A model generated the notes under the pieces. That model was not told the origin of the DNA, made no database searches, and worked only from the letters and a program-made list of their open reading frames with translations. Below, piece after piece: positions 25,486 to 48,962 of a DNA stretch of 64,000 bases (the first letter of the stretch is position 1; every line of letters begins with the position of its first letter). Position numbers and translations under genes: made by a program. The stretch comes from Chloroflexota bacterium (lineage in GTDB: Bacteria > Chloroflexota > Anaerolineae > Anaerolineales > Anaerolineaceae): the NCBI GenBank assembly GCA_004347695.1, contig SLTK01000009.1:194328-258327 (forward strand). Reading direction: 5' to 3'.

Positions 25486-25654
25486 GTTTCTGACCGGTGA
25501 GATTCGCTCAGTAGAACTGAGCTTGCCCCTTGGGTGCTTGCAGGCTTTTCAGAGGGTTCTCTGTTTAGGGTCCTTTTACCTGAGAGATTCAGCGGTGGAT
25601 GCGCTTCCAATCGCCTTGCCCCTTCGGTGCCAGTTTATGGTCTCTTCCCTAAAA
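25481..25654 (-). ncRNA. tandem glycine riboswitch
   Basis: Minus strand aptamer 1: UUUAGGG-AAGAGA...CACCGAAGGGGCAA...AAUCUCUCAGGUAAAAGGA-CCCUAAA. Aptamer 2: CCUCUG-AAAAG...CACCCAAGGGGCAA...AAUCUCACCGGU...CAGAGG. Lies upstream of gcvH. Confidence 0.93.
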
Positions 25655-25699
25655 AGGGGAATATTGAATTGAAGTTCGATTCAATGGATTCCGTAAGTA

Positions 25700-38887: not shown

Positions 38888-39035
38888 GCGGCGGGGACTG
38901 CGAGAGAAAGAACAGAGTGCAAAGAAAATAGAAATAACCAGGAATATGGGCCCTGCCCAACACCCCACAGGATACTGGGCGATCCACAGAATGCTTCGTG
39001 CCCCCATTTTCTTGTGAAAGTGGGGGCGGAAATTG

Positions 39036-39429
39036 TGGAGATGGCGGGAATTGAACCCGCGTCCGAAAGAATAGACCCGCGAACATCTACGAGCGTAGCA
39101 AGTCTTTGATCTCGCAGCCGGCCCGATTACCTGCAGAACAGGAAAGCTGCTATCCGCTCAGGCCCGAAAGCCCTCTTTCGCAACCCCCGCGGCGTGGGAG
39201 GCGGCAGCCTGACCTTGTGGCGCCCGCATCTGCTACCGGTCAGGCGGCGGAGCAGGCGGACGTGACCTCACGCGGAGGTCATTTGCTGATCACCTTCGCT
39301 TAGGCAGCGAGGGGGAGAGCAGCGTACTGAGTGCGATTGGCACTTGATTTTTTGTACTGATTTTACGAGGTCGGTACCTCTCGGCTCGCAGTCCGGGACC
39401 AGCCTCTCCCGTCGAAGCCTGTCATCCCC
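39036..39429 (-). ncRNA. ssrA: tmRNA
   Basis: 5' GGGGATGACAGGCTTCGAC; 3' GACGCGGGTTCAATTCCCGCCATCTCCA; tag ORF at 39341-39300 encodes ANRTQYAALPLAA-stop. Confidence 0.95.
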
Positions 39430-45011: not shown

Positions 45012-45085
45012 TGGGCGGGACAGGACTCGAACCTGCGACCCCATCGGTGTAAGCGATGTGCTCTAACCAACTGAGCTACCCGCCC
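45012..45085 (-). tRNA. tRNA-Val(TAC)
   Basis: Acceptor GGGCGGG/CCCGCCC-A; D arm AGCTCAGTTGGTTAGAGC; anticodon arm CATCG-CTTACAC-CGATG; GGTTCGAGTCC; CCA not encoded. Confidence 0.97.
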
Positions 45086-46247: not shown

Positions 46248-46276
46248 TTGACAAACCTTTAACGCTTCTGTATAAT
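46248..46276 (+). promoter_or_regulatory. consensus sigma-70 promoter; -35 overlapped by an 11-bp inverted repeat
   Basis: TTGACA, 17 nt, TATAAT; GGTTTGACAAT (46228-46238) / ATTGACAAACC (46247-46257). Confidence 0.85.
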
Positions 46277-46315
46277 TGTGTTTAACAAGCTAATCGGTTG
46301 TTCATAAACAATTTA

Positions 46316-46417
46316 GCAATACAGGCGGCGTCGATCTGATCACTTGAATTGGTCGCTTGTCGGAGCTTGAACTCCGGCGGGTGGTCAGGGAGCCAAATAG
46401 CGAAACCGGCCCATTGC
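46316..46417 (+). ncRNA. c-di-GMP class II-type riboswitch aptamer
   Basis: Kink-turn GGC-GUC-GA / GA-GCC; 9-bp stem UCUGAUCAC/GUGGUCAGG; pseudoknot GG-UCGCU-UG with AGCGA-AA-CC-G; P1 GCAAU..GG / CC..AUUGC. Confidence 0.75.
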
Positions 46418-46432
46418 CGGTTTTTCGTTTTT
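46403..46432 (+). terminator. terminator overlapping the aptamer 3' end
   Basis: AAACCGGC-CCAUU-GCCGGUUU followed by UUCGUUUUU. Confidence 0.8.
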
Positions 46433-46454
46433 AACAGACCTCGTGGAGGACTTA

Positions 46455-47204
46455 ATGGATGCGGTTTTGACTCAAGAAGTTGGATCGGATCTCGACGAAT
46501 ATTATTCGAGTGAAAGATCACGAATACTCGTCGTCGAAGACGATCAGGATACCGCCTTTTTGCTGAAACAGATTTTGCGCCATGCCGGCTTTGATGTGCT
46601 GAGCGCCAATAACGGCAAGGAGGCGCTCAATAAGGTCAACCTATCCATTCCTGACCTGGTGCTGCTCGACCTGATGATGCCGGAGATGGATGGTTGGGAA
46701 ACGATCGATCATCTGCGCCAGGTGAGCAATACCCCGGTTATCATCCTCACGGCGCTTAATAATAAAGAAAATGTGGTTACCTGCTTTCAACGCGGCGTGG
46801 ATGACTATATGACCAAACCATTTTATAAAGGGGAGGTGGTCGAGCGAGTTCAGGCAGTGCTCCGACGGTCGCGTTCCACCCGCGATTCCAACCGTTTTGT
46901 ATTTCCACAGGTTGGTCTGGCAATCGACATTCAAACCCGTGAAGTGCGGCTGAAAAATGCGCGCATACAGCTCACCGGGAAAGAATTTAGCGTTTTACTG
47001 AACCTTGCCAAACATGCCCCGGAAATTTTGCATTACCAGCAGATTTCCCAGGCTGTATGGGGCCGGGACTTCCCGCAGGCGCGCCAACGAATTAAATACC
47101 TTGTGTACCTGCTGCGGCAAAAATTTGCACAAGTTGATCCTGAAGCTGAAAACCTGATCGTAAACGTTGACCGGCTGGGTTACAAACTCGTCACATCCAT
47201 GTAA
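46455..47204 (+). CDS. orphan OmpR/PhoB-family response regulator
   Basis: ILVVEDD, LLDLMMPEMDG, ILTA, DDYMTKPF, winged helix LTGKEF..L...VDRLGYKL; GGAGGA RBS before ATG 46455. Confidence 0.92.
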   Translation: MDAVLTQEVGSDLDEYYSSERSRILVVEDDQDTAFLLKQILRHAGFDVLSANNGKEALNKVNLSIPDLVLLDLMMPEMDGWETIDHLRQVSNTPVIILTALNNKENVVTCFQRGVDDYMTKPFYKGEVVERVQAVLRRSRSTRDSNRFVFPQVGLAIDIQTREVRLKNARIQLTGKEFSVLLNLAKHAPEILHYQQISQAVWGRDFPQARQRIKYLVYLLRQKFAQVDPEAENLIVNVDRLGYKLVTSM

Positions 47205-47231: not shown

Positions 47232-47256
47232 GTGGGCGGCTAATTTGGCCGCCCAC
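47232..47256 (+). terminator. terminator after the response regulator
   Basis: GTGGGCGGC / GCCGCCCAC stem. Confidence 0.55.
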
Positions 47257-47380: not shown

Positions 47381-48235
47381 TTGAAGAAATACAGCCCATA
47401 TATTCTGGTCGCCGCTGGTTTGATCGTCATTTATCTTGGGGTGACCGGAAAGTACTCAATAATTTACAGCACATTATTGCTGCGCCTGGGATTGGTGAAC
47501 GAATTAGGCGACCCTACCATGGGTTTTAGCCCCTTGGAGGTGCAGGTTTCCAACCTGGTAAAAGGGCAGTTTGCGCCAGAAGTCGAAGTTACTCAGCCTT
47601 CGACTGACCAACCTGCTATGCGCTTTCCGACCCCGACATTGCGCAGCTTGGCGCCTTATCCCACGCCGCTGCCCGGCGCGACGGCCGTTGAACCGGTAGA
47701 AGCTGTGCCGATCCCCACGCTTTATCCAACCATCCCAACACGAATCGAAATTCCGATAATCGGCCTGGTGGCTCCCATTGTGCCTTCGGAACCCGCGCAA
47801 GTTAAGATTGGCAGTGATACCTTTGAACAGTACAAGGCTCCGGATAAATTTGCCGTAGGTTGGCATACCACTTCTGCGTTGCTTGGACAAATTGGGAACA
47901 CAGTATTCAACGGGCATCACAATATATTCGAAAAGGTTTTCGAGAATCTCAATAAAGTCGTCCCAGGGGATGAAATCATCGTTTACGGCGGTTCGGTACG
48001 ATACACCTATACTGTGGTCAATGTCATGATATTGCCGGAGCGCAACGTTGATATGGCGACACGTTTGGAAAACGCGCGCTGGATACTGCCGTCTCAGGAT
48101 GAGCGGTTGACTTTAATCACCTGCTGGCCGGCAGAATCCAATACACACCGCTTGATCGTAGTCGCTCAACCAAAAGGTGAACCCGTTATGGTGACGCCGA
48201 CGCCAACCGCCGGTGTACCGATCTCAAGCCAATAA
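47381..48235 (+). CDS. membrane-anchored sortase
   Basis: N-terminal TM and Pro/Thr linker; RIEIP.I, GNTVFNGHH, F.NL..V.PGD.I.V, LTLITCWP, HRLIVVA (His/Cys/Arg triad); TTG start. Confidence 0.85.
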   Translation: MKKYSPYILVAAGLIVIYLGVTGKYSIIYSTLLLRLGLVNELGDPTMGFSPLEVQVSNLVKGQFAPEVEVTQPSTDQPAMRFPTPTLRSLAPYPTPLPGATAVEPVEAVPIPTLYPTIPTRIEIPIIGLVAPIVPSEPAQVKIGSDTFEQYKAPDKFAVGWHTTSALLGQIGNTVFNGHHNIFEKVFENLNKVVPGDEIIVYGGSVRYTYTVVNVMILPERNVDMATRLENARWILPSQDERLTLITCWPAESNTHRLIVVAQPKGEPVMVTPTPTAGVPISSQ

Positions 48236-48257: not shown

Positions 48258-48962
48258 TTAGTGGAGCACCTGAGTCACATGAGATGCAAGACGATTGGCT
48301 TGCGCGGTTGTCGCCAGGTACACAGGCTGTGCAACCACGAAAATGCGTCCCCATGACGGCTCTCCGTCGGCCTCGATGCAGGTTTGCAGCACCAGTGTAT
48401 CTGCCTGCGTGTAAACTTTATAAAACAGAGTCTCCACGCTGATACGCGCGCCGTTGGGGTCATTCAGGTCAAGGAAATCTGAGTAGGGACTGTTAGGGGA
48501 AAGCGCCTGATATTTGAGCACTTCTTTGACGCGGTAAGTTTGAGTGCGGCCGTCGCCATACACAAGGGAAAGGATTTTTCCTTTTTCAACCGCGAAAAAT
48601 TTCTCACCGAGCAGGTAATTGTGCGCTAAAAGGGCAACCGTTCCGTATTGGGCAGCCATGCCGAACTGGGTGGCGGCTTCAGGTTGGGTCGAGACAAAAC
48701 CGGGCGCAGAGGAGGGTTGCTGGACGATCGGAGCTGCAAAAATGCCCCTGGCAAAAATTCCAGCGACCTGGTATGGATTACCGCTGACTGCAACGGAGGC
48801 GGCAAAAGGCGCCAAAGCGGCAACTGCTGAGCTGGCGGTTTCTGCATTTTCAAGGCTGGGGCCGGTAACGGGAATAATCGCGCCAGTAGCCGCTTGCACG
48901 GGTTGGGCGAACAGTGTCAGGATCAGTGTGATCGAAAGAAGAAGTGAGAGTTTTTGTTTCAT
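48258..48962 (-). CDS. secreted protein with a sortase-like catalytic pattern
   Basis: Signal peptide ending PVQA; LLAHN, YRV, LVLQTC, WGRIFVVA spaced as in the sortase triad. Confidence 0.65.
   Translation of the reverse strand: MKQKLSLLLSITLILTLFAQPVQAATGAIIPVTGPSLENAETASSAVAALAPFAASVAVSGNPYQVAGIFARGIFAAPIVQQPSSAPGFVSTQPEAATQFGMAAQYGTVALLAHNYLLGEKFFAVEKGKILSLVYGDGRTQTYRVKEVLKYQALSPNSPYSDFLDLNDPNGARISVETLFYKVYTQADTLVLQTCIEADGEPSWGRIFVVAQPVYLATTAQANRLASHVTQVLH

Follow-up and report, generated by a model that had tools for sequence, protein, structure and literature searches.

The window considered here, meaning the whole 64-kb stretch of Anaerolineaceae (Chloroflexota) DNA that was analyzed, carries a structured leader between a promoter and a response-regulator gene, with a sortase gene further downstream. 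The genes and features of the locus are as follows.

46248-46276, forward strand: predicted sigma-70-type promoter, TTGACA-17-TATAAT, matching the consensus at 12/12 positions
46316-46417, forward strand: aptamer of the c-di-GMP-II class (P1, P2, kink-turn, P3, pseudoknot, inserted hairpin), recognized by its RF01786 match and by covariation
46402-46432, forward strand: intrinsic terminator with a 9-bp stem GAAACCGGC/GCCGGUUUU, loop CCAUU, and a U tract (hairpin at 46402-46424)
46445-46449, forward strand: ribosome-binding site GGAGG of the regulator gene, from its sequence
46455-47204, forward strand: OmpR-family response regulator (receiver and winged-helix domains), whose orthologues share this ATG start
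47232-47256, forward strand: 11-bp GC-rich hairpin between the regulator and sortase genes, possibly a terminator, its U tract being weak
47381-48235, forward strand: sortase gene; its synteny with the regulator gene holds throughout the genus and extends to some further Anaerolineales genera

Upstream of the regulator lie an FtsX/MacB permease gene, a CrtC-like gene, a tRNA gene, and an FAA hydrolase gene. The regulator is of the OmpR type and no histidine kinase gene was found in its neighborhood, so that the original prediction of an orphan response regulator, followed directly by a sortase gene, is supported. At gathering thresholds, the only Rfam matches in the window are a tmRNA (39033-39429, reverse strand, 159.7 bits), a tRNA (45012-45085, reverse strand, above the Rfam threshold), and a glycine riboswitch (25558-25659, reverse strand, 58.3 bits).

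A base-by-base check of the leader located every element that had been described in it, including the complete kink-turn, the 9-bp stem, and the extra UCGGAG/CUCCGG hairpin. The parts of the aptamer are listed here; the helices and sheared pairs are those verified in this check.

46316-46320 (GCAAU) with 46413-46417 (AUUGC), forward strand: outer part of P1
46324-46325 (GG) with 46410-46411 (CC), forward strand: inner part of P1
46326, forward strand: junction nucleotide C46326, 3' of P1, equivalent to A13 of PDB 3Q3Z
46327-46334, forward strand: 5' strand of the kink-turn (P2 GGC, bulge GUC, sheared GA), with its partner GA-GCC at 46390-46394
46327-46329 (GGC) with 46392-46394 (GCC), forward strand: P2, the C stem of the kink-turn
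46330-46332, forward strand: 3-nt bulge GUC, as in a standard kink-turn
46333-46334 with 46390-46391, forward strand: tandem sheared pairs G46333·A46391 and A46334·G46390
46335-46343 (UCUGAUCAC) with 46381-46389 (GUGGUCAGG), forward strand: P3, 9 bp
46351-46357 (GGUCGCU), forward strand: 5' strand of the pseudoknot, pairing with AGCGA at 46399-46403 and CC at 46406-46407
46358-46379, forward strand: inserted hairpin, 8 bp and 22 nt, including UCGGAG/CUCCGG, in the P3 loop on the 3' side of the pseudoknot strand
46395-46408, forward strand: pocket-lining tail (A46395, AGCGA, A46404, A46405, CC, G46408), holding the equivalents of A61, A69, A70, and G73

The pseudoknot joins the P3 loop to the 3' tail by seven pairs, UCGCU/AGCGA plus GG/CC, and leaves A46404 and A46405 unpaired. 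A hairpin occupies the insertion site in nearly all copies of the genus alignment, with varying sequence, and is missing from 84-nt forms (the L001 type and the wider phylum), which marks it as an optional insertion. P1 is short and is interrupted by an internal loop, ACA/C, between its outer and inner parts; it comprises 5 bp, the loop, and 3 bp if C46326-G46409 is counted, and this weighs against reading the leader as a working aptamer. The window copy also has one additional A separating P2 from the pseudoknot (GCCAAAUAGCG).

The Rfam model of c-di-GMP-II aptamers (RF01786) matches the locus over its whole length (model positions 1-84) at 46315-46418, with 35.9 bits and E-values of 2.8e-6 on a 351-nt region and 6.2e-6 on the 3.3-Mb genome. 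The original prediction had staked itself on a significant covariance-model score, and here the outcome was divided: the E-value of about 3e-6 is significant, yet 35.9 bits falls short of the gathering score of 53.5. The variant model RF03169 (c-di-GMP-II-GAG) gave 30.6 bits against a threshold of 40, and RF03170 (c-di-GMP-II-GCG; threshold 47.9 bits) gave no match to the locus at E up to 10. The locus falls short of the curated threshold in each of the three models and is thus not a formal member of any of these Rfam families. The genome contains six aptamers of this type, two of them in tandem; none of the six passes RF01786, and the window copy has the second-lowest RF01786 score among them.

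Judged by its sequence and fold, the RNA is a homologue of the c-di-GMP-II class despite these scores, and its similarity to RF01786 is not due to chance. It has the P1, P2, and P3 helices with the kink-turn between P2 and P3, the loop-to-3'-tail pseudoknot with GG/CC pairs flanking two unpaired A's, the equivalents of A61, A69, A70, and G73 of 3Q3Z (A46395, A46404, A46405, and G46408), and, in the predicted platform, a GC-rich hairpin and U tract sharing its 5' arm with the aptamer. What it lacks is the junction A (A13) in a noncanonical floor pair, since C46326 pairs Watson-Crick with G46409. The signatures of the two variant classes are absent as well: A46404 stands where the GAG variant has G (at the A69 equivalent), and the window reads AA then G, not GC then G as in the GCG variant. 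The full-length match, together with the covariation described below, supports the c-di-GMP-II-type identity originally proposed. Three sister copies (G000:C3:1024127-1024212, C6:47542-47644, and C5:74982-75085) pass the GAG threshold while carrying A, not G, at the variant-defining position; they do so because the GAG consensus has the same GGUCGCC/GGCGA pseudoknot sequence. Automatic annotation would mislabel these three aptamers as GAG variants. The copy at C6:47542-47644 is of the A type at its junction.

To collect homologues, three of the genome's six copies served as seed for a covariance model, which replaced a MAFFT alignment of the six paralogues that had misplaced the 3' half of some copies. 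The model returned 139 matches in 29 of 41 related genomes. Each of the 22 other genomes in the genus (Bellilinea) yielded matches, as did 41 of 301 genomes taken from across the phylum. In the genus alignment of 124 distinct copies, pairing extends to 92.9% of the P1/P2/P3/pseudoknot cells versus 78.1% in shuffles, with 0/500 shuffles reaching the observed value, and pairing drops to 25-46% in slid-alignment controls. P2 is 96% paired, with compensatory changes, P3 is 91% paired, with changes on both sides in seven of eight scored pairs, and the kink-turn GA/GA is near-invariant. The alignment was fitted to P1-P3, leaving the pseudoknot and the junction pair outside the fit; the pseudoknot is nonetheless 98% paired and covaries at two positions (U-A/A-U and U-A/C-G), which bears out the compensatory UCGCU/AGCGA pairing that had been read from the window alone. 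Copies across the phylum shade into the canonical GGGCAC/GUGCAACC form, and these aptamers therefore form one family with the Firmicutes type. The sequencing runs found to hold the locus are DNA metagenome contigs with strain variants, none of them RNA-seq.

The 5' arm of the terminator, 46402-46410, consists entirely of aptamer nucleotides, drawn from the pseudoknot, the pocket, the floor pair, and P1. The same overlap recurs in 25/25 copies that precede orthologous response regulators, with loop sequences that differ, and the unliganded minimum-free-energy fold contains the terminator and not the aptamer. Because all nine nucleotides of this arm belong to the aptamer, ligand binding and termination would be mutually exclusive, and the overlap therefore predicts an ON switch. 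This is the logic that the original prediction had drawn from an aptamer 3' end doubling as a terminator arm, and its recurrence in all of the regulator-linked copies supports it.

We consider it likely that the leader at 46316-46432 acts as an ON riboswitch at the level of transcription and adopts the class II c-di-GMP (GEMM-II) fold. The transcript made from the 46248-46276 promoter would start near 46283, roughly 30 nt before the aptamer. Without ligand, GAAACCGGC (46402-46410) would pair with GCCGGUUUU (46416-46424), and the transcript would end in the U tract before the regulator gene. With c-di-GMP bound, the nine nucleotides 46402-46410 would be held in the aptamer: G46402 and A46403 in the pseudoknot, A46404 reading one ligand guanine and G46408 the second, A46405 intercalating between the two ligand bases, C46406 and C46407 pairing with G46352 and G46351, G46409 pairing with C46326 as the floor of the pocket, and C46410 in P1. 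The terminator would then be blocked and the regulator gene (46455-47204) transcribed, so that a rise in c-di-GMP would most likely turn on the response-regulator gene.

The feature that sets this copy apart from the canonical class is its junction base. The original prediction had placed C46326 between P1 and the kink-turn stem where an A would be usual; the C is confirmed, and the usual A agrees with the Rfam consensus GGAggC. The replacement of a nearly invariant A weighs against the main reading. In the alignment C46326 is partnered by G46409, which directly follows the G73 equivalent. Among 120 of the 124 distinct genus copies (4 being gapped at the junction), the pair is C-G in 59, A·G in 49, G·A in 7, A·C in 2, A·A in 2, G·G in 1, and U-A in 0; a junction C is partnered by G in 59/59 copies and a junction G by A in 7/8. 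In 33 aptamers from other Chloroflexota genera, the counts are A·G 22, G·A 6, A·A 4, and U-A 1, with C-G, A·C, and G·G each at 0. Other Anaerolineales genomes also contain C-type copies, among them those of Anaerolinea, Thermanaerothrix, and Longilinea. A scan for the C-type pattern returned at least 119 stretches at 80 or more loci, about half of the listed loci being chance matches in GC-rich genomes, and gave the lower-bound impression that, among the matches listed, C-type aptamers are confined to Chloroflexota. As aligned, C46326-G46409 is a Watson-Crick floor of the pocket that replaces a purine-purine pair, and the junction C is a derived, lineage-typical state that is common in Anaerolineales.

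The structural roles of the pocket bases are taken here from PMC13715770. In the class II pocket of 3Q3Z, the upper guanine is read by A69 and the lower one by G73, with A70 intercalating; A61 forms the ceiling, the ligand backbone has the first P2 pair stacked on it, and the floor is a noncanonical pair at the top of P1 (PMC13715770). In an engineered Bh aptamer, the lower ligand base stacks on the junction base A8 (PMC13715770, 2026), which by alignment is A13 in 3Q3Z numbering; the floor base stacks on the ligand without a hydrogen bond to it (PMC13715770). Floor composition can matter for selectivity, because an engineered change near the floor of the Bacillus halodurans aptamer opens it to cGAMP isomers (PMC13715770). 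Changing the first P2 pair shifts relative cGAMP affinities several-fold (PMC13715770). The equivalents of A61, A69, A70, and G73 are conserved across the genus (A46395 in 124/124 copies, A46404 in 120/124, A46405 in 124/124, and G46408 in 123/124). The C-G floor probably tunes stability rather than ligand identity.

Other copies depart from the class at the pocket in different ways. In L122 (G003:C23:138841-138942), L108, L127, and L119, U replaces A at the ligand-reading position equivalent to A69 (AGCGAUACC), and three of these four copies precede a Wzz-like chain-length-determinant gene; they are a stronger candidate for altered ligand specificity than the C of the window. L271 (G232:C4:173861-173960) has a U-A Watson-Crick floor pair, and L279 (G244:C69:9591-9674) has a true GAG signature (GGCGAGACC). 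On the strength of these two copies, several pocket variants of the class exist in Chloroflexota.

The ligand itself is most likely unchanged, namely c-di-GMP. All nine GGDEF domains in the genome (91% complete) have the canonical GHxxGD motif, and neither a SMODS cyclase nor a Hypr-type GGDEF was found there; the canonical GGDEF set and the undetected SMODS cyclase favor c-di-GMP. So do the interchangeability of C- and A-type aptamers and their shared tandems. Orthologous regulator genes are preceded by C-type aptamers in Bellilinea, Longilinea, Anaerolinea, and Thermanaerothrix and by A-type aptamers in a further two genera of this family, and the two types stand in tandem before the same surface-protein genes. 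A working notion that sister genera always have the A type before the regulator was dropped in view of the C-type copies before orthologues in Longilinea, Anaerolinea, and Thermanaerothrix. The suggestion in the original prediction that the deviations could alter ligand specificity finds little support, since the pseudoknot changes are compensatory, the hairpin is optional and genus-wide, the four contact bases are unchanged, and C46326 pairs Watson-Crick with G46409 at the pocket floor.

It is conceivable, though rather improbable, that the fold and ON mechanism hold while selectivity or affinity is altered by the closed C-G floor in combination with G-C as the first P2 pair, the C-type ligand then being 3',3'-cGAMP, pGpG, or similar, or c-di-GMP at a threshold clearly different from that of the A type. 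The high conservation of the junction A in the Rfam consensus would fit such a shift, but the base at this position stacks on the ligand with no hydrogen bond (PMC13715770), and all four bases that read the ligand or intercalate are those of the class. The first P2 pair is G-C in 52/59 C-type versus 17/53 A-type copies, and both a change of this pair (several-fold in relative cGAMP affinities) and an engineered floor-region variant (binding of cGAMP isomers) have effects of the relevant kind (PMC13715770); yet the two types interchange before orthologous regulator genes, and the genome yielded no Hypr-type GGDEF or SMODS cyclase. The tandems can be read either way: in 5'-to-3' order they are C-C in eight cases, C-A in seven, and A-C in two, and the seven C-then-A pairs before one gene would suit two thresholds or inputs, while the eight C-then-C pairs resemble the same-ligand tandems of Paraclostridium. 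That the Anaerolineales C-types, with their C-G floor and fixed G-C P2 pair, are a functionally distinct subclass with a shifted ligand profile or a markedly different c-di-GMP threshold seems unlikely.

Two further explanations would remove ligand sensing altogether. The leader might be a decayed riboswitch, its aptamer binding nothing and its terminator being constitutive or protein-controlled, and the low score relative to the other genome copies, the interrupted P1, and the extra A would fit decay. This is very unlikely, however, given that the hairpin and the extra A are maintained in orthologues of at least six other species, with compensatory changes, and that the pocket bases as well as the terminator overlap are intact in 25/25 regulator-linked copies. 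A chance resemblance, in which an ordinary structured leader unrelated to c-di-GMP-II happens to look like one, would account for a score under the curated thresholds but not for an E-value of about 3e-6 over the full model, for helices and a pseudoknot that are all in register, or for Chloroflexota sequences that grade into canonical GGGCAC/GUGCAACC forms; it is effectively refuted. An ON switch of the c-di-GMP-II class, in a structural variant specific to its lineage, remains our preferred reading.

Whether the switch reaches beyond the regulator is doubtful. Direct co-control of the sortase gene is uncertain because the strong hairpin at 47232-47256, which sits just past the regulator stop codon and is readable on both strands, separates the two genes and may separate their transcription. 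A second, weak sortase-domain ORF (48258-48962 of the window, reverse strand; 24 bits, below the cut-off) is convergent with the sortase gene and has an IPVTG motif immediately after its own signal peptide.

The sister aptamers precede proteins that end in LIPVTG(G/A)D followed by a hydrophobic segment and a basic tail, which look like sortase substrates with an LPXTG-like sorting signal. Such proteins lie downstream of L002, L042, L068, and others, and many have long Thr/Pro-rich repeats. Further sister copies stand before genes encoding an S8 protease, a camelysin/TasA-like protein, and a secreted protein of 1236 aa; the gene set is of the kind known for c-di-GMP riboswitches. Tandem aptamers stand before surface-protein genes at G000:C5:74850-75084 and at many loci of the genus. 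On G000:C5, an FMN riboswitch (L002 1924-2059, forward strand, 92.3 bits) lies about 320 nt from a tandem c-di-GMP-II-like pair on the opposite strand.

The element class and its mechanism are already known. RF01786 and the 3Q3Z aptamer of Clostridium acetobutylicum share with the window the P1-P2-kink-turn-P3-pseudoknot architecture, the A61, A69, A70, and G73 equivalents with GG/CC pairs around two unpaired A's, and an ON logic by terminator competition, which is predicted for the window. They differ in the junction base (A13 in 3Q3Z, a Watson-Crick-paired C here) and in the pseudoknot core (GCAC/GUGC in 3Q3Z, compensatory UCGC/GCGA here); the window adds a 22-nt hairpin in the P3 loop and an interrupted P1, stays at 35.9 bits under the 53.5-bit RF01786 threshold, and belongs to Chloroflexota, not Clostridia. 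RF03169 and RF03170 have clan and fold in common with the window, but at the positions of A46404 and A46405 their Rfam consensus has G for GAG or G and C for GCG, and we infer that the names GAG and GCG refer to these ligand-contact positions. A literature search found no verified ligands for RF03169 or RF03170 aptamers. Riboswitch variant classes are reportedly described in a 2017 PNAS paper. PMC5737381 mentions c-di-GMP-II only in passing.

The engineered c-di-GMP-II-Bh aptamer (a BhP1-5delC derivative) has the same pocket architecture, with the junction base as the stacking floor under the lower ligand base, but this RNA was engineered and binds 2',3'- and 3',3'-cGAMP over a noncanonical A·G floor, whereas the window has a natural C-G floor (PMC13715770). 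The tandem c-di-GMP-II aptamers before surface-anchor genes in Paraclostridium (PMC9481103) resemble the sister doublets before surface-protein genes; the window copy is a singlet, and the Bellilinea doublets often mix C- and A-type aptamers. No paper linking c-di-GMP-II riboswitches to Chloroflexi was found in the literature.

In Clostridioides difficile, class II c-di-GMP ON switches are said, in 2015 work by Peltier and by Bordeleau, to precede the sortase substrates CD2831 and CD3246 and the type IV pilus operon. Both systems would thus have a c-di-GMP-II ON regulon centered on sortase-anchored surface proteins, with ON being predicted here. The present one differs in that one switch would govern a transcription factor encoded next to the sortase, LIPVTG(G/A)D is the sorting signal, and the host belongs to Anaerolineae. 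The novelty lies in a Watson-Crick-floor subclass that is abundant in Anaerolineales and escapes curated thresholds.

Most of a large c-di-GMP riboswitch regulon in Anaerolineae goes undetected at standard Rfam thresholds. The replacement of the junction A by a Watson-Crick-paired C (or by U-A) offers a natural test of the floor's role in affinity and selectivity, a question of current interest since structures were solved of an engineered class II aptamer that binds cGAMP, and experiments are feasible in the cultured relative Bellilinea caldifistulae GOMI-1, which has the orthologous switch at G003:C27:175586-175690. If the C-type aptamers do have a shifted profile or threshold, the recurrent C-then-A tandems would act as natural gates, with two thresholds or two inputs, for surface proteins anchored by sortase, and a master regulator next to the sortase gene would be set by the singlet C-type switch. 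The finding would tie c-di-GMP to a transcription factor and to sortase/LIPVTG surface display in the filamentous Chloroflexota, organisms in which second-messenger control has been little studied.
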